Notes: generated by a model from the sequence alone, not told the origin. A stretch of DNA of 64,000 bases from a virus (IMGVR_UViG_3300011862_000001:1-64000), one strand, 5' to 3'. Positions 7,512 through 58,642 are shown, counted from the stretch's first letter. Translations and numbers: made by a program.

Positions 7512-9409
7512 GTGGATCAATATTGCGGGTTGTTACAACAAATCCTGAACGTCGGTCACCCGAAGGCCGACCGTACCGGTACCGGGACGCTGTCCTGTTT
7601 TGGCGCACAGATGCGCTTTGATTTGCGTGACGGGTTTCCGATGGTCACCACCAAGAAACTGCACCTGCGCTCGATTATTCATGAGCTGTTGTGGTTCCTG
7701 AAAGGGGACACCAACACCCAGTACCTGAACGATAACGGCGTGACTATCTGGGACGAATGGAGACGTCCATATATCGGTTTTACAGATAAGGTTATTCGTA
7801 TCCCACGAGTTAAAAAAGAGTATGTCCCTTTTACCGGGACATTCCCTATATCTATCCCGACGTTCGATTCTGAAGTAGATAAGAAGTTAGCGTATGCGTG
7901 GCAGAAGATGATGCGGCGCTGTTACGATAAAACGGCACACAACTATCGTAGCTACGGCGAGAAAGGTACTAGCGTGGCGTTGCGTTGGCACAATGTGACC
8001 AATTTTGTTAATGACGTTAAAGAACTACAAAATTGGGTTTATAAAAACAAGAACTGGAATATGTTCGAACTCGACAAAGATTACTACGGTTCTAACCAGT
8101 ATTGTCCTGAAGGGTGCGTATGGCTCAGTAAGAAAGAAAACGTTCATCATGCGTGGGTACGTATCGTTAAAGGAGATGGTACTGATTACATCTGCCGGAC
8201 GTATAAACATGCAGCCGCGTTAACAGGGCTAAGTAAATCCTCCATCCACCGTTTTATTGAAAAAGGTATTACTCCGCACCTTAAAGGAAATAACCGGATC
8301 AGTGGTGTGAAAAATTGGCTTATGCATAAAGCCAACACCGAAGATTTCGTTTATCGTAACGCGATTCACGACGACGGTGACTTAGGCCCGGTTTACGGTA
8401 AGCAATGGCGGGACTGGGTCGGGCCAGACGGTAAACACCATGACCAGATTTCCAAGGTCATCGACCAGCTGCGTAACGACCCCGATAACCGCCGTATTAT
8501 CGTCAGTGCCTGGAACGTGGGTGAGTTAGACCAGATGGCGTTAGCGCCGTGTCATTCTTTCTTCCAGTTCTACACGCGTGAACTGTCACTCGATGAACGT
8601 CTGGGGTGGCAGGCTGAAAACGAACCTGACGCTTACCAGTTCTCTAAATGTGAAGAGTACGAAGACGATGAAGATAACCACGACGCATTGACCGCCGATG
8701 GTGTTCCGCGTCGTATGCTGTCTTGTCAGCTCTATCAGCGTAAACTAAGCTGCGCCTTCTAGGGGTGACCCTAGTCGAAAAACACTCCCTAATTGCTGGG
8801 ACACCTTAACGTCGTTTAAGCTACAACGTGACCGGTAACGGTGGGCGTGAATGCTAAAAAATTAAACGATTCATGGTCAATCAGCATCTAAAACTCCTTG
8901 AAATGTATTTTATCCTAACGGTTAGACTTTTAAATTCAAGGTTTGAAGTTCAACGACTAGAACGTGATTGTTCGTAGGGGACAAGTGTCCTCGAAATGGG
9001 AGAGCATCTGCGCAGCAGTTTCGCAGATGGTGATATAGTCTGATCTGCATGGCGACATGCAGCTGCGCGTAATGGCGCGGGGTGTGACTAACGACCACAC
9101 CTGAACATCTTGAGCGCAGATATGTTCCTTGGCGTGCCCTTTAACATCGCGTCTTACGCGCTGCTGATGCACATGGTCGCCCAACAGGTGAACATGGCCG
9201 TCGGCGATTTCGTCTGGACAGGTGGCGACGTACACATCTATTCCAATCACATGGAACAGGTGAAAGAGCAGCTCACCCGTAAACCGTTGCCGTTACCAAA
9301 GCTAGTTATCAAACGTAAACCGGAGTCTATCTTCGACTACCAGTTCGAAGACTTCGAGGTTGTAGATTATCAAAGCCATCCTGCGATTAAAGCGCCGGTT
9401 GCTATCTAA
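7512..9409 (+). CDS. thyA: thymidylate synthase; join(7512..8741,9113..9409), ~508 aa including an in-frame HNH insertion
   Basis: [38 protein letters not shown]|[28 protein letters not shown]; splicing restores YQRSAD. Confidence 0.95.
7761..8363 (+). mobile_element. HNH homing-endonuclease-like domain inserted in frame in thyA
   Basis: [10 protein letters not shown]...YGEKG..V..RW, ELDKD...[16 protein letters not shown], and C-terminal [19 protein letters not shown]; visibly more AT-rich than the flanks. Confidence 0.8.
8742..9112 (+). mobile_element. group I intron (ORF-less, 371 nt) in thyA
   Basis: Exon 1 ends in U (CGT); intron ends in G; IGS GCT-GCGC pairs with 3' exon AGC and 5' exon GCGT; P (AATTGCTGGGA), Q (AATCAGCA), R (GTTCAACGACTA), S (GATATAGTC) and P3 CTCCC/GGGAG all present. 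Confidence 0.93.
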
Positions 9410-50487: not shown

Positions 50488-50548
50488 ACACGAGGGGAGG
50501 CGACTCCCCTTTATTTTTTGTCCGGTAAGAATAAAAAAGATTTCAGAT

Positions 50549-51551: not shown

Positions 51552-52094
51552 ATGTTTATACTTCAAAAACACCACGACATTGTCACTAACCCGGCTTACC
51601 GTGATTGTACCGATGCCAAAGAATTCTTAGCACCGGTCAGTATCGCGCATCTCAATTACTTGAAAAAGCTGACGTACCTCGCGACGTTCGAAGACGGCAA
51701 ACCTGTCCACGTTCAGAAGCTGACTGCGGTTGAGAATACGGTGTATCTCTACGTCGATAAACTGACACCGAAGTTACTCAATGAACTGCGCATGGTGGTA
51801 CGTCCCGCAACACTTACCTATCCGGGGGCGTTCTTTGCGGTGTGTGAGCCGGAAGGACGTGACCCGTCGATGGAAGCAGTCACATTCGGTTTCACGGTGC
51901 CGCCAGAGCTGCGGTCTATCGAGAAACTGGCCCCGTTAATTGGTCACCCGAACGCGCAAATTATTCTCGAGGGGATAGCCTCGGTCACTAATCCGCAACA
52001 CGAATACGTGATGAACTGGAAGGGTGACGAAGAGATGGCGGAATACTTCCAACAACACGGTTTGAAATTCGTCAGTGCGTTTTACGCGCTGTAA
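51552..52094 (+). CDS. hypothetical protein
   Basis: 180-aa ORF with GAGGA SD. Confidence 0.75.
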   Translation: MFILQKHHDIVTNPAYRDCTDAKEFLAPVSIAHLNYLKKLTYLATFEDGKPVHVQKLTAVENTVYLYVDKLTPKLLNELRMVVRPATLTYPGAFFAVCEPEGRDPSMEAVTFGFTVPPELRSIEKLAPLIGHPNAQIILEGIASVTNPQHEYVMNWKGDEEMAEYFQQHGLKFVSAFYAL

Positions 52095-52100
52095 TAAATC

Positions 52101-52129
52101 GGGGAGCTTCGGCTCCCTGTTTTTTTTTG
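52101..52129 (+). terminator. terminator
   Basis: GGGAGC-TTCG-GCTCCC followed by a long T run. Confidence 0.85.
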
Positions 52130-52339
52130 TTTCAACCCGCATCACTGCTCATTTTTTGACCACTTTCTGTACACATTTTAACCAGTGAAAATAAGCAGCC
52201 AAAACGCGCTTTACAGCGGTCGTAACCGAACCCGGTACACTTGGGTTCCTTTCCCTAAATAACGTCTCCTGGGTACCGCTGCGTTCGAATTTGACGGTGT
52301 CCCGACCCCGACTTGCGACCCCCTCGTCATCGACTGGCG

Positions 52340-52780
52340 ACCGCCACGCCGATCAAACGTTGGGTACCGCTTCGCGGAACTGGGGATCTAAAACAGGGAA
52401 ATCTTGACAAACGAATCTTCGTGAGTTTGTCTGATTTGGTTGTTTTTTAACCAATAACCCCTAGCCAGCCTCCAGCTGGCTTAATTTACCCTTTTAAAAA
52501 TTTTCTTTTTAAAAAACAAAGACTTACAACCGATCTTACCCCTCCCCTCAGGGGGAGGGTAAAAAACTCTTCTATTAGTCGCGTGCGCGTGCGCACGCCA
52601 TTTCCTACAGGATCTTTTAAAAGAATTATATTATTATAATTATATATATCCCGTAGGGATATAATTATAAATATAAATATATATAACTCTTCGAGTTTAA
52701 ATATACTAACGCGCGTGATCCTTATTAAGAGATCGGATCTCGGATCGGCAGGTTGACCACCCCGATCGGGGGGGGGGGAA
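52340..52780. other. non-coding palindrome/AT-rich region, candidate replication origin or packaging site
   Basis: Several inverted repeats, a nearly pure A/T tract at ~52615-52705, nine GATC sites and a G11 run. Confidence 0.45.
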
Positions 52781-52782
52781 GT

Positions 52783-52811
52783 CCAATTACAGGTTTACCC
52801 AGTAGTATGCT
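52783..52811 (+). promoter_or_regulatory. putative middle promoter
   Basis: CCAATTAC-N15-TATG; near-identical copy at 53951-53979. Confidence 0.7.
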
Positions 52812-53075
52812 CGAAGGCACATGCACCACGTTGCCATCATCCAATCTCCCGGTTGACATCGGGCCGGGAGACTTTTTCGAGTCCGACTCACGCAGGGTGA
52901 GACGCGCTTACTGGCCAGTTGTGGTACAGGACCCGCAGTGCTGATCCCGCTGCGGGGATTTTTTCCCCAGGCGCTCATCCTGTTCAGGAATTGCTGTGTG
53001 TAGTTCGCCCCGTTCCTACCGGGGCGCTTTTTCGAGAGTCTTCCCCGAGGGTTGTCGACAAAGCGAAAAACCGTT
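52809..53075 (+). ncRNA. candidate structured ncRNA 1
   Basis: Own promoter motif, no credible ORF, multiple stems (GCTCGAAGG/TTTTCGAGT, TCTCCCGG/CCGGGAGA, CCGCAG/CTGCGG, CGCCCC/GGGGCG). Confidence 0.5.
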
Positions 53076-53109
53076 CAGCCTAACACTCAACGTGATTTTG
53101 TTTTAGTAT

Positions 53110-53410
53110 GTCCAGAGATTCAGGTTCCCGCCGGGCTTTCACCCCGGTCGGTACCGCGGTAGCCTCAGGGGCGTTCTGCCCCGCCGGACCGTCATCCGTC
53201 GCCATGGCCATGAACTTACGCGTGGCCCACGTCGGTTGGATGCTCCTGAGGCGCGACCGAATTCGGCGTTGCGTCGAAACGTTCCCTGCGTGGAGACACC
53301 GCAGGGGTGGGATTGTCCCGAAGGGGGTGATTGGTTGTTTATCTTGGCGGCTCGGAAAGACGAGAGGGGGATGCCTGCACGCTGTGAAGCAGTTCGGGCA
53401 CCGCTGTCGA
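53110..53410 (+). ncRNA. candidate structured ncRNA 2
   Basis: Own promoter motif (AAC-N15-TATG, 53089-53110); nested long-range stems and a GAGA tetraloop. Confidence 0.55.
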
Positions 53411-53464
53411 TATTTTTTACAGATTCCCCAGTTCATGTGTTCAAACCCAGCGAGGAATTTCAGC

Positions 53465-53965
53465 GTGACCACGATTGCATTCGACGGTAATACTCTGGCG
53501 GCGGACAGCCAGACAACCCAAGAGAACATTCGCCTCTCGAACTCTGCGGTAAAAATCTTCACCCGCGTCGCGCAGTCTGATGACTGGGCAATCGAGGGGA
53601 AACGCATCACCGCGTTTGGGGTGGCGGGTAACCTACACGCAGCCAACGATTTGCGCAGAGCGATGGAAACGTTTGCTGGCCACAAAGCCGGTGACCCGTT
53701 CGCCAAAGGCATCACCTTCGCGTTCATCGCGATTGCTGAAGACCGTACCGTGTTTGTTGGCGGGAAGTATTCTGACGATGACCGTTCGTGGGTCGTCGAA
53801 GCACAGGCACCGGTTGCTGTTGGTAGCGGTGGGGATTTCGCCATGGGTGCCATGGCCGCTGGGGCTACAGCCGAACAGGCTGTGGAGATTGCTGCTCGGT
53901 TCGATGTGAATACCGGCGGCCTTGTCCAGGCGATTAACCTCGCCAAAAGCCCAATTACAGATTAA
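53465..53965 (+). CDS. HslV/proteasome-beta-like Ntn threonine peptidase
   Basis: True start GTG 53465 (GAGG SD) gives MTTIAF...AADSQ...KI...GVAG...AVGSGG..AMGAM...D..TGG; own promoter TTTTAC-N15-TGTG at 53415-53439. Confidence 0.82.
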   Translation: MTTIAFDGNTLAADSQTTQENIRLSNSAVKIFTRVAQSDDWAIEGKRITAFGVAGNLHAANDLRRAMETFAGHKAGDPFAKGITFAFIAIAEDRTVFVGGKYSDDDRSWVVEAQAPVAVGSGGDFAMGAMAAGATAEQAVEIAARFDVNTGGLVQAINLAKSPITD

Positions 53966-53979
53966 CCCAGTGCTATGCT
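53951..53979 (+). promoter_or_regulatory. putative middle promoter for the tRNA cluster
   Basis: CCAATTAC-N15-TATG, repeat of 52783-52811. Confidence 0.7.
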
Positions 53980-54013
53980 GAGAGGCGCACGTCGGTTTCT
54001 CTGAAAGAATTCT

Positions 54014-54089
54014 AGGGAAGTAGCTCAGCAGGCAGAGCGCTGATCTCCAAAATCAGATGCCACAGGTTCGATTCCTGTCTTCCCTGCCA
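54014..54089 (+). tRNA. trnW: tRNA-Trp(CCA)
   Basis: AGGGAAG/CTTCCCT acceptor stem, CTGAT-CTCCAAA-ATCAG anticodon arm, GGTTCGATTCC, encoded CCA. Confidence 0.95.
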
Positions 54090-54182
54090 ATTTCCAATAG
54101 CTCGATGACCCGGTTATCCATCTGGCCCGAGCGAATCAACACCGCATAGCCGCAAGGCGTGAGTGATGGATTGGGAAAAGCA

Positions 54183-54302
54183 ATGGCAAAAGTAAAAATT
54201 ATCACGGGGCGTAATGGCGTGCAGTACGCCGAACGCAATGGGGTGGTTTGTCGTTTAGACTTACCAGCTCCTAAACCAAAAAAGAATTTAGCCAGCAAGT
54301 AA
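54183..54302 (+). CDS. small basic protein (39 aa, not in the ORF track)
   Basis: MAKVKIITGRNGVQYAERNGVVCRLDLPAPKPKKNLASK. Confidence 0.45.
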   Translation: MAKVKIITGRNGVQYAERNGVVCRLDLPAPKPKKNLASK

Positions 54303-54348
54303 GCGAGTTACCGCGGAAGGCCAATTAGCCAATCAGCGGAGAACGCCC

Positions 54349-54570
54349 ATGAACTTGTATTTGCTAGAACGAACGGATGATGTTGGTCACGACGAATTTG
54401 ATTCCATAGTCGTTGCAGCTCCTACGGAGCACGCCGCGTGTGCAATTCGTCCACGAGGTGGATGGGTGCCAGACAACCAAGCCGAAGACGGGGTTACCCT
54501 GAGGATAGCGTTGATAGGCACTACCCACCTACCCGCCGGCATCGTCCACACATCGTTCAACGCAGGCTGA
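54349..54570 (+). CDS. small hypothetical phage protein
   Basis: 73 aa, GGAG SD, MNLYLLER.D...DEFDS.VVAA pattern typical of small phage proteins. Confidence 0.7.
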   Translation: MNLYLLERTDDVGHDEFDSIVVAAPTEHAACAIRPRGGWVPDNQAEDGVTLRIALIGTTHLPAGIVHTSFNAG

Positions 54571-54599
54571 ATAATCGGTGGGCTTCGGCCCACCACCCT

Positions 54600-54675
54600 G
54601 GGGCAATGGCTCGAGCGGTTAGGCGACGAATTGCAAATTCGGATAAGGTCGGTTCAAATCCGGCTTGCCCCTCCA
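54600..54675 (+). tRNA. trnC: tRNA-Cys(GCA)
   Basis: GGGGCAA/TTGCCCC acceptor stem, TTGCAAA loop, GGTTCAAATCC, U73 discriminator plus CCA. Confidence 0.93.
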
Positions 54676-55045
54676 AATACACCAACAGGAATATTTCGAT
54701 ATTCGTGTTGAAGCTGACTGTCACTTGCTCACAAGTGTATACCCATAGGCGTCGGGGCTGGTATCCCCGCTGCCACGGTAATAGCGAAGACCTATCGCAT
54801 ACCCCTAAGTCGATAGTAGCCGGTTACACAAAAGACCACCCTAGGGTGGGTAGCTGACCGTGAACAAACTTACTCGATAACTTAAGAGAGTTGTTATATG
54901 CAAGGATGGAGAGTAGCACTGGGGGAAATGATGGCGACCTTACGCTATTTCATTGCCCACGCGCACCTCTGGTCACTTGCCCATTATCGGCTTACAGGCG
55001 GTGGGAGTTCCCGTGAGGGTTCCCGACACAGACAACTTCCTGCGT

Positions 55046-55148
55046 GGAACTATTTGTCCGTATCGGACAGGCCAGCACCGGACTGCTAATCCGTCTCGCT
55101 AACGCCTGTAATACTACAATCTGAAATCTGATTGGGATTAAGTTCCCA
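55046..55148 (+). pseudogene. degenerate tRNA-Ser(GCT)-like element
   Basis: GGAACT/AGTTCC ends and CGGA-CTGCTAA-TCCG anticodon arm; non-canonical T arm. Confidence 0.45.
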
Positions 55149-55318
55149 GAAGTGAACGGGTGGCAGACGCCACCGTAGGCGCGGTACCTCATACGGCCGG
55201 TACGCCGCAAAAGCAAGACGGATAGGGGATGGTGCTTGGAGAGGTTCAGACCAGCGTATCGTTGGCTCAACTGAAGAAGTCCATCATCCCCGTTTCCTAC
55301 AACGTATGTGAGGCGTGT

Positions 55319-55645
55319 ATGGAACAATACCGCGAAGGGCCGAAAAGCACCGTGACGCACCAGTGTCACGACTATAACGTCGATGATTTACTGGACGTCG
55401 TTGCCACACACCGTCTCGTCCAGATTCCTCTTTCCAAGGTGGAGTGGATTCTGGAGGAAACTCAGGTGGAACCTGAGCGGGTGGAGTCTGCGGATATTGA
55501 TTATCCGATTATCGTACTCCACCAACGTAATCAGTATATTGTATTGGATGGTGCCCATCGACTTACCAAAGCCAAACGCTTAGGGGAAAAGACGATTGCG
55601 GCCAAGGTCATAGTTCCGGCAGAGTTACCGAAACCGGTACGCTAA
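55319..55645 (+). CDS. ParB/Srx-like domain protein
   Basis: YPIIV...IVLDGAHRL.KA...G...I motif; ATG 55319 with GAGG SD. Confidence 0.75.
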   Translation: MEQYREGPKSTVTHQCHDYNVDDLLDVVATHRLVQIPLSKVEWILEETQVEPERVESADIDYPIIVLHQRNQYIVLDGAHRLTKAKRLGEKTIAAKVIVPAELPKPVR

Positions 55646-55660
55646 CGCTACGAGGTTATC

Positions 55661-55837
55661 ATGCCAACAGTTCATCTTCCTAAAGATTTGAATGAGAAGC
55701 TCGACGACCTGTACGTTCGTCTGGTGACTGAAAGTCAGCAGAAGTTAAAACGCACACGCGTGGTTGAAATCGCATTTGCGAAAGGCATTGACAATGTCAC
55801 TGTCGCCGATGTGATACGCAAAGATTTGGAGAATTAA
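55661..55837 (+). CDS. ribbon-helix-helix-like small protein (58 aa, not in the ORF track)
   Basis: MPTVHLPKDLNEKLDDLY...KRTRVVEIAF; GAGGT SD. Confidence 0.65.
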   Translation: MPTVHLPKDLNEKLDDLYVRLVTESQQKLKRTRVVEIAFAKGIDNVTVADVIRKDLEN

Positions 55838-55875
55838 CCGAGTGGCCGAAAGTGCTCCGGTCGATTCGTTTCAAT

Positions 55876-55971
55876 GAACGATGAAGTTAGAGGCATAAAC
55901 ACCCGACTCATAATCGGACAGCGGTTTACCTGGCAGGTACTCCTTCGCAGTTTCGAATCCTGTCATCGTTC
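55876..55971 (+). pseudogene. aberrant tRNA-like element with CAT anticodon and long variable arm
   Basis: GAACGATGA/TCATCGTTC stem, CCGA-CTCATAA-TCGG arm, TTCGAATCC loop; no CCA. Confidence 0.55.
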
Positions 55972-55990
55972 GATCTAATTAAACTCAGAT

Positions 55991-56007
55991 ATATTTTACC
56001 TAAATGA
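55991..56007 (+). promoter_or_regulatory. putative early promoter
   Basis: CAGAT-ATATTTTAC-N5-TG. Confidence 0.6.
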
Positions 56008-56034
56008 ATCAGTAAATATATTTGAGAGGTAATA

Positions 56035-56574
56035 ATGAAAACATTTTCTTTACCACCTGGCGACTGGGTGCCTGCACCTGATGCCCCCGACCTGTTTATG
56101 GTCTCGAGGAAAGGTGAGCTTTATTCCCTTCGTTCTAATCGCATCGTTTCTCAAAATGTGATAGGCAATGGGTATCTTGCCCACGTCACGAAAGTAGGTG
56201 GGAGGAAAGGGACTAATCTTGTGCTTAAAACGCACATACAGGTGGCCAAAGCTTTTCATCCCAACCCTGAGAACAAACCGGAAGTTAATCACAAAAACGG
56301 TATCAAGACTTGTAATGAGGATTGGAACGTTGAGTGGTCTACGCGGCAAGAGAATATTGACCATGCGGTTGAAACTGGTCTTTTTTCATGCATATCTTCC
56401 CATTCCGGCACAAAGCTTCCGAGAATGTCCGGCGAGCAAATTCGCGAGCTGTTAGAAAATCCAGCTGGCAGCGTCAGGGATTGTGCGAAAGAATATAATG
56501 TGGACCGTAAAACTATTCAGAACATACGGAAAAATCCTGCGCATTATCTCGCCATGACTCTTACAAAGAAGTAA
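56035..56574 (+). CDS. free-standing NUMOD4/HNH homing endonuclease
   Basis: VS.KG, H..VAKAF.PNPENKPEVNHKNGIK..N...N.EW.T..EN..HA and a C-terminal HTH. Confidence 0.9.
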   Translation: MKTFSLPPGDWVPAPDAPDLFMVSRKGELYSLRSNRIVSQNVIGNGYLAHVTKVGGRKGTNLVLKTHIQVAKAFHPNPENKPEVNHKNGIKTCNEDWNVEWSTRQENIDHAVETGLFSCISSHSGTKLPRMSGEQIRELLENPAGSVRDCAKEYNVDRKTIQNIRKNPAHYLAMTLTKK

Positions 56575-56591
56575 TCGTTCGCCCTTATTCT

Positions 56592-56667
56592 TGGTGATTA
56601 GTTCAGTCGGTAGAACAGTGGACTGTTAATCCATACGTCACAGGTTCGATTCCTGTATCACCAGCCA
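56592..56667 (+). tRNA. trnN: tRNA-Asn(GTT)
   Basis: TGGTGAT/ATCACCA acceptor stem, TGGA-CTGTTAA-TCCA anticodon arm, GGTTCGATTCC, CCA. Confidence 0.95.
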
Positions 56668-56967
56668 TATTTTGCACTGCCCCTTATCCCGAAAGGCATT
56701 CCGAAAAATATCATTCATGGTCGGGGGTAGTGCAGAACCAAATCCCAGCTTTTGCACCTCAAACCGCCTACCTGCATGGGCTCCTCAGGGTGCGAGGGCT
56801 GGGTCCAAATACAGGCCGGGAGCCAATTGGGTTTTTAGTGCTATTATGCCGTCGAACCATCACGGCTTCCGGTCTGTGCCAACTTTGCTGGTTAACAGTA
56901 AAGCCCTTGCGGGGGATAAGCCGCTAACAACAACAATAGAAACAGAAACAGTAATAAGGTAGTCAAC

Positions 56968-57447
56968 ATGTATACAGTGATGCGTATTGTAGGGGGCAAC
57001 CGCTCGCCTATCGACCTGGAAGAGTACACGCTGGGTGACCACAACTCACAGGTGTTTGCGGAAGCGATGCGTTATGCCAAAGAATCGGATGTTTATCAGC
57101 AAGTGTCCCTGGCGGACGCCTCGCAACTGATAAAGGCGCAGAAAGAGTTTGAGTCTGTTGAGTGCGAGAACGCTGCGAACTACTGCCAAGAGATAAGCTG
57201 TGTGGAGTTAGAGCTTCACCATCCGTCTACTGGCTTGCCACCGAGCGAAATGGTGTGCATGGGCACCCGTTCAGGTTCTCGTGCGTTAGAAGACGCTATC
57301 GGTGTGTTGGCGTACGAACTGCCAGACGTAACAGACCCTGATGACCCTGGCTATATGTGCCAGACATCACGTTGGGAATTCATCTATCCGGGCGATTCTG
57401 TCTTTGTGACGAACCGCTTTGGTAAGACCGTGGATTCTCTGCGCTAA
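56968..57447 (+). CDS. hypothetical protein
   Basis: 159-aa ORF with TAAGGT SD. Confidence 0.75.
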   Translation: MYTVMRIVGGNRSPIDLEEYTLGDHNSQVFAEAMRYAKESDVYQQVSLADASQLIKAQKEFESVECENAANYCQEISCVELELHHPSTGLPPSEMVCMGTRSGSRALEDAIGVLAYELPDVTDPDDPGYMCQTSRWEFIYPGDSVFVTNRFGKTVDSLR

Positions 57448-57540
57448 CCATATTAGCATGCTCGCTAATGGCTACTCTGGGATTGACCCTCCCGTGCCTG
57501 AAGAGTAGTAGATGTACCTTTGTAAAAGCCACACCAGCTC

Positions 57541-57583
57541 GGTATTACCCACCCTTCGGGGTGGGTAATACCTTATATTTTTT
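57541..57583 (+). terminator. terminator closing the tRNA island
   Basis: GGTATTACCCACCC-TTCG-GGGTGGGTAATACC followed by Ts. Confidence 0.88.
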
Positions 57584-57588
57584 CAGAT

Positions 57589-57605
57589 ATATATTACCTA
57601 GGTGA
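57589..57605 (+). promoter_or_regulatory. early (virion RNAP) promoter
   Basis: Exact TATATTAC followed by N5-TG. Confidence 0.75.
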
Positions 57606-57649
57606 CATTGACGTACTAATCTTTTTCACTGACTATCAAGGAAACTATC

Positions 57650-58642
57650 ATGCGCCCAATCGCCTCTTCTGCTGTTGAGACATTAACTTCATTAGGCTAC
57701 ACTGAACTGGAAGCGAAACGCATCCGTCCGTATCTGCCAAAACATTTCCAGATTGACCACCCGGCCCCGCCGCGTACCAACGTGGAGTTCTGGTTGGCTT
57801 ACTACGCCGCTCAACACTTTACCACCTCCTCAGCCAGCCGGGGTAAGTTTACCTCCGAATTGGTTGTCGGTTTCTGGCCTTATAACAACATCACTTACAC
57901 CTGCGATGCGTTTACCGTGAGCTTCTCTGAGATTGAGTTTATCCGCCACTTCGGCGAAGCTCTGTTCACCGACTTCGACACCAACCTCGGTCGTCGTGTG
58001 GTGGCCCTCAACAATGACGGCAGTCTCAAGTTAAAGAACCGCCCTTTGCAAATTCGCCTGCGTGAGATTGAGGTGGAAATCGAGGAAATCAAAAACGATT
58101 ACGGTTTCCACTACGGCTGGTTCCAAACCCGTTACCACACCGGCAACCTGCAATTGCCACCGCGTGGTTGTCCGAACGTGAAAAGCATCCTGCCCCTGTT
58201 AGCCCAGGCTGCCCTCGCCCTGGAGTATCAGGTGGATGCTCACCACCGTCGGATGTTATCGAACCAACTGGACTACGTAGCTATTGCTAAGTTCTTGTTT
58301 TTCCTGGAATACAACAGAATGCGTGGCATGCCGCTTAAGGAGTTCAGTTCCCTGCGCAATCAGATATTTAGAAACATGCTCTCCCGCAGTCCTATCAATT
58401 GCAATATCCGTGTCGATGTACCGACCAGTGTGTTTATGGTGCCGAATAAAGGCTTCTTTACCGCCGACGGTTTTAGACAGTTCCCGATTGGCAACGGCTC
58501 ACCGTACGCCAACTATTATATCGGCGACTTGCTGGTACGTTACACAGACCACACCAACAGCATGCGTACGTGTGTCAAGGTGCCTGAGTCGTTGTACGAT
58601 ATGTTTACCGAAGCCGAATGGGCTGAAGCGGTAAGTGCTTGA
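57650..58642 (+). CDS. hypothetical early protein
   Basis: 330-aa ORF with AAGGA SD; terminator at ~58650-58678. Confidence 0.78.
   Translation: MRPIASSAVETLTSLGYTELEAKRIRPYLPKHFQIDHPAPPRTNVEFWLAYYAAQHFTTSSASRGKFTSELVVGFWPYNNITYTCDAFTVSFSEIEFIRHFGEALFTDFDTNLGRRVVALNNDGSLKLKNRPLQIRLREIEVEIEEIKNDYGFHYGWFQTRYHTGNLQLPPRGCPNVKSILPLLAQAALALEYQVDAHHRRMLSNQLDYVAIAKFLFFLEYNRMRGMPLKEFSSLRNQIFRNMLSRSPINCNIRVDVPTSVFMVPNKGFFTADGFRQFPIGNGSPYANYYIGDLLVRYTDHTNSMRTCVKVPESLYDMFTEAEWAEAVSA

Follow-up and report, generated by a model that had tools for sequence, protein, structure and literature searches.

The window analysed here is a 64,000-nucleotide (nt) stretch of viral DNA (IMGVR_UViG_3300011862_000001:1-64000), and the feature under study is the ~4.8 kb between positions 52783 and 57583, where transfer RNA (tRNA) genes are set among small protein genes and long non-coding spacers. 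In the gene map of this analysis the region consists of ~53% coding sequence, 7% tRNA and ~40% neither, and open reading frames (ORFs) of at least 80 amino acids (aa) cover 0.73 of it compared with 0.98 of positions 1-52000, so that it is gene-poor as an earlier reading of the sequence alone (the sequence-only reading) had stated. That reading had proposed an island of non-coding RNAs, a view which is upheld: the spacers are conserved among related phages, and four elements (53110-53412, 54747-54865, 55070-55292 and 56670-56737) are, judged by their pattern of substitution, structured RNAs under selection, found in up to 21 related jumbo phages and encoded on the strand of the tRNAs. These elements, the tRNAs and an embedded small gene are arranged as follows.

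53110-53412, + strand: ~300-nt structured non-coding RNA (upstream RNA), marked by covariation and no conserved frame
54014-54089, + strand: tRNA-Trp (anticodon CCA), CCA end encoded
54600-54675, + strand: tRNA-Cys (anticodon GCA)
54747-54865, + strand: 5' domain (~125 nt) of a ~540-nt unit spanning 54747-55292; hairpin P1 and a junction that helix P0 closes; loops invariant
54898-55089, + strand: ORF E, a conserved 63-codon gene, open in 17/17 sequences, with a weak phrog_26199 match
55070-55292, + strand: 3' domain (~220 nt) of the same unit; five helices, the final 13-bp hairpin with invariant GGUGCUUGGAG and GAAGAAGUCCAUC
55877-55971, + strand: variant tRNA with anticodon CAU and a ~20-nt hairpin in the variable region (Rfam RF00005)
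56592-56667, + strand: tRNA-Asn (anticodon GTT)
56670-56737, + strand: conserved ~70-nt hairpin beginning 3 nt past tRNA-Asn

The sequences closest to the region, at 70-85% identity, belong to Erwinia and Salmonella jumbo phages of Machinavirus, Seoulvirus (SPN3US), Erskinevirus and Wellingtonvirus, and synteny of the locus was found in 16 relatives. Their gene order begins with an HslV-like peptidase gene, tRNA-Trp, a 73-aa gene and tRNA-Cys, continues with variable accessory genes (TerB, DUF3927, TAXI, sometimes a ParB-like gene) and ends with 8-13 tRNAs, closing with a CAU tRNA and tRNA-Asn, followed by two conserved genes. The window keeps this gene frame, but its only canonical tRNAs are those for Trp, Cys and Asn, the three that the sequence-only reading had correctly named, to which the variant CAU tRNA is added, whereas relatives hold 10-15 tRNAs at the locus. 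All three canonical genes encode CCA, and all directly adjoin conserved elements.

The ~300-nt RNA was aligned across nine sequences (the window, five Machinavirus and three Seoulvirus sequences), and no reading frame is open across all nine. On the RNAalifold structure 91.4% of cells are paired, and compensatory change is seen in 39 of the 95 pairs, compared with 18.9 ± 2.8 in shuffled alignments and 6-13 with slid partners. With a covariance model built on the 3' half of this RNA, a single copy was located in each of SPN3US, Stratton, Asesino and Kwan, and none in RAY. The copy lies just 5' of the peptidase gene in SPN3US, while in Stratton, Asesino and Kwan it lies at the extreme end of records that start at the peptidase or a neighbouring gene. 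The gene on its 3' side varies, being the peptidase gene in the window and a ~60-codon small gene in SNUABM_4, SNUABM_9 and pSal04.

The ~540-nt unit was aligned across 17 sequences, with 93% of cells paired on domain-wise consensus structures and 40 of 92 pairs compensatory (182 cells versus 58 ± 6.5 in shuffles, with slid controls reaching at most 14 pairs). Its 5' domain, for which 21 sequences were aligned by covariance model, has 97.3% of cells paired and compensatory change in 21 of 26 pairs (119 cells versus 34 ± 4.7 in shuffles), helix P0 alone appearing as CGGU/ACCG, CCGG/CCGG, CGGA/UCCG, GCGAU/AUCGU and GUAAU/AUUAC in a set that includes RAY and SNUABM_48. In the 3' domain helices 12, 13 and 15 covary, and a model of the 3' hairpin scores 75-85 bits across the SPN3US-like clade. 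One 3'-domain helix (55160-55215; alignment columns 482-515) comes in two forms of unrelated sequence, GUAGGCGCGGUACC.. or GGAGAUAACCCC.., which are spread among the phages without regard to their relatedness, a pattern suggestive of recombination inside the RNA gene.

Between and partly across these domains lies ORF E. The other five frames over it contain 1-7 stops each, with one exception, in the 17 sequences, and gaps within it are multiples of three, whereas indels in the RNA domains are not. The N-terminal half has a ratio of non-synonymous to synonymous change (pN/pS) of 0.2-0.5; the C-terminal half is low in both pS and pN, the mark of nucleotide-level constraint, and has weaker but real covariation. 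By these comparative measures ORF E is a small protein-coding gene that lies within structured RNA and overlaps it. Its 63-aa product has no match in Pfam or the protein atlas. Two of the modules that the sequence-only reading took to lack ORFs turn out to be protein genes; the 63-codon gene, a 39-codon gene described below, the variant CAU tRNA and a gene for an HNH endonuclease were all absent from it.

In the ~70-nt hairpin beside tRNA-Asn 94.8% of cells are paired, 10 of 18 pairs are compensatory (4.4 ± 1.2 expected), and the closure of its ends is both conserved and covarying. Compensatory changes thus exceed shuffled and slid controls in all four elements, in alignments that amount to about six independent lineages and against shuffles that ignore phylogeny. 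In the paired columns G.U outnumbers A.C (118 v 32, 138 v 13, 36 v 9), an excess that places the structure in RNA of the + (tRNA) strand and is unexpected for the opposite strand or for DNA.

Thermodynamic folding gives a less uniform picture. Measured as z-scores against dinucleotide shuffles, with random segments of the window averaging -0.6 to -0.9, the expectation that the spacers fold better than shuffles held for several of them, among which the whole spacer 56668-56967 is the strongest (z -5.5), followed by 56741-56925 (-4.8), 56670-56737 (-4.1), 57448-57649 (-4.0), and 55090-55295 and 52810-53035 (both -3.3). It failed for 54090-54182 (-1.0) and for 54755-54870 taken alone (-0.7), the latter folding weakly yet covarying strongly. 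The observation that spacers start and end with complementary sequence fared similarly: end closure is conserved and covarying in 56670-56737, in the terminal hairpin 55218-55292 and in the 5'-domain junction, but 55090-55228 is closed by TCCGTCT/AGACGGA in the window only and not in relatives.

Searches of 51900-57800 with Rfam 15, both at gathering thresholds and at E-values (E) up to 5, returned only tRNAs, leaving the RNAs without a family and the suggested link to the large RNAs GOLLD and ROOL without a family match. A YrlA match to a relative (27.6 bits versus a threshold of 69) was treated as chance. No match to 54676-55300 or 53100-53420 was found by blastn in 5,426 Escherichia coli genomes, as might have pointed to host mimicry. 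Pattern scans of IMG/VR located true members on jumbo-phage contigs only, the full-length ones being 239-271 kb, while nine further matches share only a short motif and are recognised by neither covariance model. Literature searches turned up no account of these RNAs.

The 5' domain, present in a single copy per genome, extends beyond the syntenic group. Its model matches Agricanvirus RAY (73 bits) and pEa_SNUABM_48 (94 bits), and gives no hit in Proteus phage 10, Moabite, Miami or phiKZ. In RAY and pEa_SNUABM_48 neither ORF E nor the 3' hairpin was found, the hairpin model being negative even without filters, and the gene contexts are quite unlike that of the window. On the strength of these model searches the 5' domain is modular, standing alone in both phages, which is new here. 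A dedicated role as cis-regulatory leader of the 63-codon gene is not supported, since both phages have the domain without the ORF. The earlier proposal that the RNAs form a functional group with the peptidase, ParB-like and RHH genes is likewise not borne out, as this place is taken in relatives by TerB, DUF3927 and TAXI genes, with the ParB-like gene only in some, and as the context of the 5' domain differs so much in RAY and pEa_SNUABM_48.

In RAY the homologue starts a 1,268-nt unannotated gap (record 167689-168956). Sixteen Agricanvirus records, counting the RAY query itself, share this gap at 99% identity or more, and AH06 has it at 81%; it contains no Rfam match (E up to 1) and no convincing ORF, and may represent a much larger RNA. 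In pEa_SNUABM_48 a tRNA-Tyr-like gene with encoded CCA end lies directly 5' of the domain, and a gene resembling the 73-aa gene of the window lies ~220 nt downstream.

The remaining features of the locus are listed in order.

52783-52811, + strand: promoter-like motif copy 1, TTACAG..CCCAGT..TATG, kept in five Machinavirus relatives
52809-53041, + strand: three tandem units of hairpin and T run, each ending TTTTCGAG, terminator-like at 52845, 52932 and 53006
53080-53110, + strand: promoter-like element CTAACAC..TTTTAGTATG preceding the ~300-nt RNA, conserved in the Machinavirus and Seoulvirus alignment rows
53412-53440, + strand: promoter-like motif copy 2, just 5' of the peptidase gene
53465-53965, + strand: HslV-family peptidase gene, GTG start (phrog_1040; homologues of 157-166 aa)
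53951-53979, + strand: promoter-like motif copy 3, 38 nt 5' of tRNA-Trp, 89-98% conserved in Caitlin, SNUABM_4 and SNUABM_9
54090-54182, + strand: conserved ~90-nt element directly 3' of tRNA-Trp, with a GNRA-capped hairpin
54183-54302, + strand: 39-codon small gene, conserved peptide KIITGRNGVQYAERNGVVCRLD, synonymous third-position changes in Caitlin and Parshik
54349-54570, + strand: 73-aa gene (phrog_5444, E 2e-31)
54577-54594, + strand: UUCG-capped hairpin between the 73-aa gene and tRNA-Cys (z -3.3)
55319-55645, + strand: ParB/Srx-like small gene, true start at ~55319 (phrog_17560 match begins at residue 31)
55661-55837, + strand: 58-aa gene (weak match to phrog_5219, E 9e-4)
55988-56002, + strand: AT-rich motif GATATATTTTACCTA, candidate early promoter of the virion RNA polymerase, of the type in phiKZ-like early promoters
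56035-56574, + strand: HNH endonuclease gene between the variant tRNA and tRNA-Asn (phrog_59, E 1e-34)
56741-56925, + strand: second structured stretch (z -4.8)
56968-57447, + strand: 159-aa gene (phrog_1453, phrog_17697)
57541-57572, + strand: strong intrinsic-terminator-like hairpin closing the unit, 14 pairs and then a T run
57586-57600, + strand: AT-rich promoter-like motif ahead of a 330-aa gene (57650-58642), in a region 84% conserved in Huxley and Parshik

The variant tRNA scores 32.8 bits with the tRNA model RF00005 (gathering threshold 29; 39 bits in a relative) in a match that spans the whole model and has 26 nt inserted in the variable region. Its extra arm is maintained through compensatory changes in SNUABM_4, ChrisDB and SNUABM_9, while other relatives have an ordinary 75-nt CAU tRNA at the same position. 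ARAGORN made no call for the variant in the window or in three relative sequences (L002, L004, L006), and reported no transfer-messenger RNA in the window. In the window copy G53 has become T, so that the G53-C61 pair is lost (GCAGT..CCTGT, where relatives have GCAGG..CCTGC), and this copy may be decaying. The neighbouring endonuclease gene, with a GC content of ~0.43-0.44, reaches 24.6 bits with Pfam HNH_3 (cut-off 24.8). It is present in Salmonella phage 1252 and SNUABM_6 and missing between the CAU tRNA and tRNA-Asn of SNUABM_4, ChrisDB and SNUABM_10, where the two tRNAs are adjacent, so that the HNH domain is combined with the presence/absence polymorphism among relatives expected of an HNH homing endonuclease. 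The gene and the adjoining variant tRNA match Salmonella phage 1252 jointly at 75% identity, and the AT-rich promoter-like motif lies immediately 5' of the gene. The pattern resembles the mobility of homing endonucleases in tRNA clusters, as with segB of phage T4, a homing endonuclease gene sitting in such a cluster (PMC2330249).

Among the other genes, a 285-aa ORF from 53108 was rejected as an over-extension of the peptidase gene because phrog_1040 covers only its residues 115-280. The peptidase itself is 82% identical to the proteins of Parshik, pSal-SNUABM-04 and Huxley, 55% to that of Caitlin and 46% to that of SNUABM_4, and its gene is mosaic, the adjoining non-coding DNA being instead nearest the Caitlin/ChrisDB group. 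The weakly folding element 54090-54182 is more than 90% identical in Caitlin and Parshik, the two relatives having it, and these sequences are too few for covariation. For the hairpin at 54577-54594, 21 nt are identical in many relatives, with a covarying AGTGGGC/GCCCACT in SPN3US. Homologues of the ParB-like protein in pSal-SNUABM-04 and Parshik have ~108-110 aa. Near the end of the region a hairpin in the 5' untranslated region (UTR), GCGG-GGGAUAAG-CCGC at 56909-56924, covaries in SNUABM_9, SPN3US, SPAsTU and SNUABM_29, and an A/CAA-rich leader runs from it to the ATG at 56968.

Non-coding DNA also extends ~690 nt upstream of the region (52095-52782), is 72-80% conserved in relatives and holds a near-pure A/T block at 52600-52720, kept even in Seoulvirus, together with a GATC cluster and a G11 run; this stretch may have a DNA-level role such as an origin or packaging site. 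Distant from the tRNA locus, a group I intron lies at 8732-9062 of the window (Rfam RF00028, 58.5 bits).

Five copies of one promoter motif had been read into the region. The extended form TTACAG..CCCAGT..TATG is shared by three of them (52787, 53417 and 53955), which are the only three in the whole 64 kb, while the other two share only TATG. The supposed copy ending at 53110 has a different upstream element, itself conserved (the CTAACAC..TTTTAGTATG element, which follows a terminator hairpin on the 5' side of the ~300-nt RNA), and the TATG of the copy ending at 54900 contains the start codon of ORF E. At 52806, 53107 and 53973, TATG has conserved sequence upstream in each case. In phiKZ, late promoters used by the non-virion RNA polymerase have a TATG core whose G is the +1 position, and in phiKZ-like phages the early promoters consist of extended AT-rich motifs (PMC5312081). 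The AT-rich motif has 7 matches compared with 1.4 expected, with near-exact copies (GATATATWTTACCTA) at 50546, 55988 and 57586, whereas a scan for sigma-70 promoters was at chance (8 found, 6.1 expected). A GC-rich hairpin followed by a T run, the form of an intrinsic terminator, occurs at 52845, 52932, 53006 and 57541, the last being the strong terminator that had been predicted to close the region.

Taken together, these features most probably describe a tRNA/stable-RNA locus common to SPN3US-like nucleus-forming jumbo phages, which has preserved several structured RNAs, each in one copy, on the + strand. This interpretation builds on the conservation of the RNAs, the selection on their base pairing, their strand, the lack of a conserved frame in the ~300-nt RNA and the modularity of the 5' domain. 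In this phage most tRNA genes would have been lost and an HNH endonuclease gene inserted, while the ~300-nt RNA, the ~540-nt unit (5' domain, 63-codon gene, 3' domain) and the ~70-nt hairpin by tRNA-Asn would have been retained, the remainder of the island being ordinary terminators and 5'-UTR hairpins. The RNAs would be transcribed together with the tRNAs from phage-polymerase promoters of the TATG type and with AT-rich motifs; they would then be released as stable RNAs by RNase P and RNase E of the host and by 3' trimming; and the freed RNAs would act in trans on a protein or RNA partner via their invariant loops. Co-transcription, release and action in trans have, as a joint proposal from sequence, roughly an even chance of being right. 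A more specific version, in which the RNAs would be a trans-acting set specific to Enterobacterales nucleus-forming jumbo phages, the ~540-nt unit would be bifunctional (ROOL/GOLLD-like as well as peptide-coding) and the 5' domain an autonomous binding module, is tentative; that domain might bind a host or phage factor such as the ribosome, a defence nuclease directed at tRNA, or a part of the phage nucleus that exports or processes RNA. That the RNAs serve as a decoy against tRNA-directed defence nucleases, or in translation control, as the sequence-only reading had supposed, is in either case rather doubtful.

Several observations weigh against the picture of a co-transcribed set of free RNAs. 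The promoter assignments would depend on short motifs, and other genes of the window show no enrichment of the TATG core ahead of them, nor is the core a window-wide motif. The protein gene in the middle of the ~540-nt unit could make the flanking domains UTRs of a messenger RNA and not free RNAs. A scan for covarying long-range helices yielded no supported pairing of the 5' domain with the 3' domain: of the candidates, AGCCGG/UCGGCU clashes with a better-supported local helix, and in AGCACCG/UGGUGCU both motifs are invariant, precluding a covariation test, while a compensatory change in Kwan favours the local hairpin. The hairpins of 52809-53041 are kept in four relatives, yet only 4 of their 56 pairs show compensatory change, and tandem terminators may be the simplest reading of that stretch.

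The alternative that survives best, although unlikely, extends this last point to all of the folds, which would be only cis-acting parts of transcripts (terminators, RNase E/III sites, stability hairpins or translation leaders) without a role in trans. The four hairpins with T runs, the terminator-like behaviour of the 52809-53041 units, the 5'-UTR hairpin and A-rich leader ahead of the gene at 56968, and the bracketing of a genuine small gene by the 5' and 3' domains all fit such an explanation, and premature termination is the source of the 5'-UTR RNAs of phiKZ (PMC10914365). It accounts poorly, however, for the multi-helix junctions and invariant loops of the ~300-nt RNA and the 5' domain, which go beyond what stability elements need, for a 5' domain without the small gene in RAY and SNUABM_48, and for a ~300-nt RNA that precedes different genes in different phages.

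Far less probable is that the conserved stretches are DNA-level elements (an origin, a packaging site or protein-binding arrays) or unrecognised small protein genes. Relatives' records start at the peptidase gene, which puts the locus at the conventional genome start, an AT-rich and GATC-rich stretch lies just upstream (52600-52780), and two small ORFs did prove to be genes; but the strand-asymmetric excess of G.U over A.C is unexpected in duplex or cruciform DNA, 53110-53412 has no conserved frame, and, ORF E excepted, the indels are not multiples of three. Decay of tRNA genes from the larger cluster of relatives, suggested by the 10-15 tRNAs there against 3 + 1 here and by the tRNA-derived 55877-55971 with its broken G53-C61 pair, is the least probable origin of the spacers and is largely refuted for the main elements, since the tRNA covariance model gives no other match in 51900-57800 (E up to 5), the same RNAs occupy the same places in relatives with a full tRNA set, and their structures are upheld by compensatory change and show no decay.

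If the locus is indeed a shared tRNA/stable-RNA locus, it bears on phages in which transcription is set apart from translation, which are candidates for phage therapy and whose non-coding RNAs are little known outside phiKZ. Across four to six phage genera, one fixed locus preserves the structures of no fewer than three complex RNA families, all of them absent from Rfam. They have clear boundaries, alignments and covariance models and are testable in Salmonella, E. coli and Erwinia hosts, the stand-alone 5' domain of RAY and pEa_SNUABM_48 being the minimal unit with which to start.

Functional RNAs from tRNA neighbourhoods have parallels in both hosts and phages. In E. coli, spacers of tRNA precursors, cut by tRNA-processing enzymes, yield the 3'ETS-leuZ sponge and the tyrT-linked RtT RNA, which is associated with the small basic protein Tpr. 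The RNAs described here would likewise come from the spacers of tRNA transcripts, but show no match to RtT in Rfam or to E. coli sequence. The nucleus-forming jumbo phage phiKZ makes short structured RNAs from 5' UTRs (PMC10914365; Grad-seq PMC8545117). With a phage promoter at one end and a hairpin terminator at the other, these resemble the 52809-53041 units; the phiKZ candidates were, however, defined by transcript mapping and the RNAs here by covariation, and the 5'-domain model is negative in phiKZ. The tRNA region of T4 contains two stable RNAs, "species 1 and 2", transcribed along with the tRNAs. Its layout, with stable non-tRNA RNAs in a tRNA cluster alongside a homing endonuclease gene, is similar to the one predicted for the window, although here the RNAs are larger and more numerous and the endonuclease is of the HNH type, as opposed to GIY-YIG in T4. 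A further parallel is with ROOL and GOLLD, which assemble into multimers of RNA alone. They are large RNAs of phages and prophages and are often found near tRNA islands (bioRxiv 10.1101/2024.12.08.627333; PMC5737381). The RNAs of this locus likewise are large, multi-helix, strongly covarying and phage-encoded beside tRNA genes, and ROOL is close in size to the ~540-nt unit. The RNAs here differ from both in matching no Rfam family, the RAY gap included, and in belonging to Enterobacterales jumbo phages, where the ~540-nt unit carries a coding frame in its middle and a 5' domain that elsewhere stands alone.

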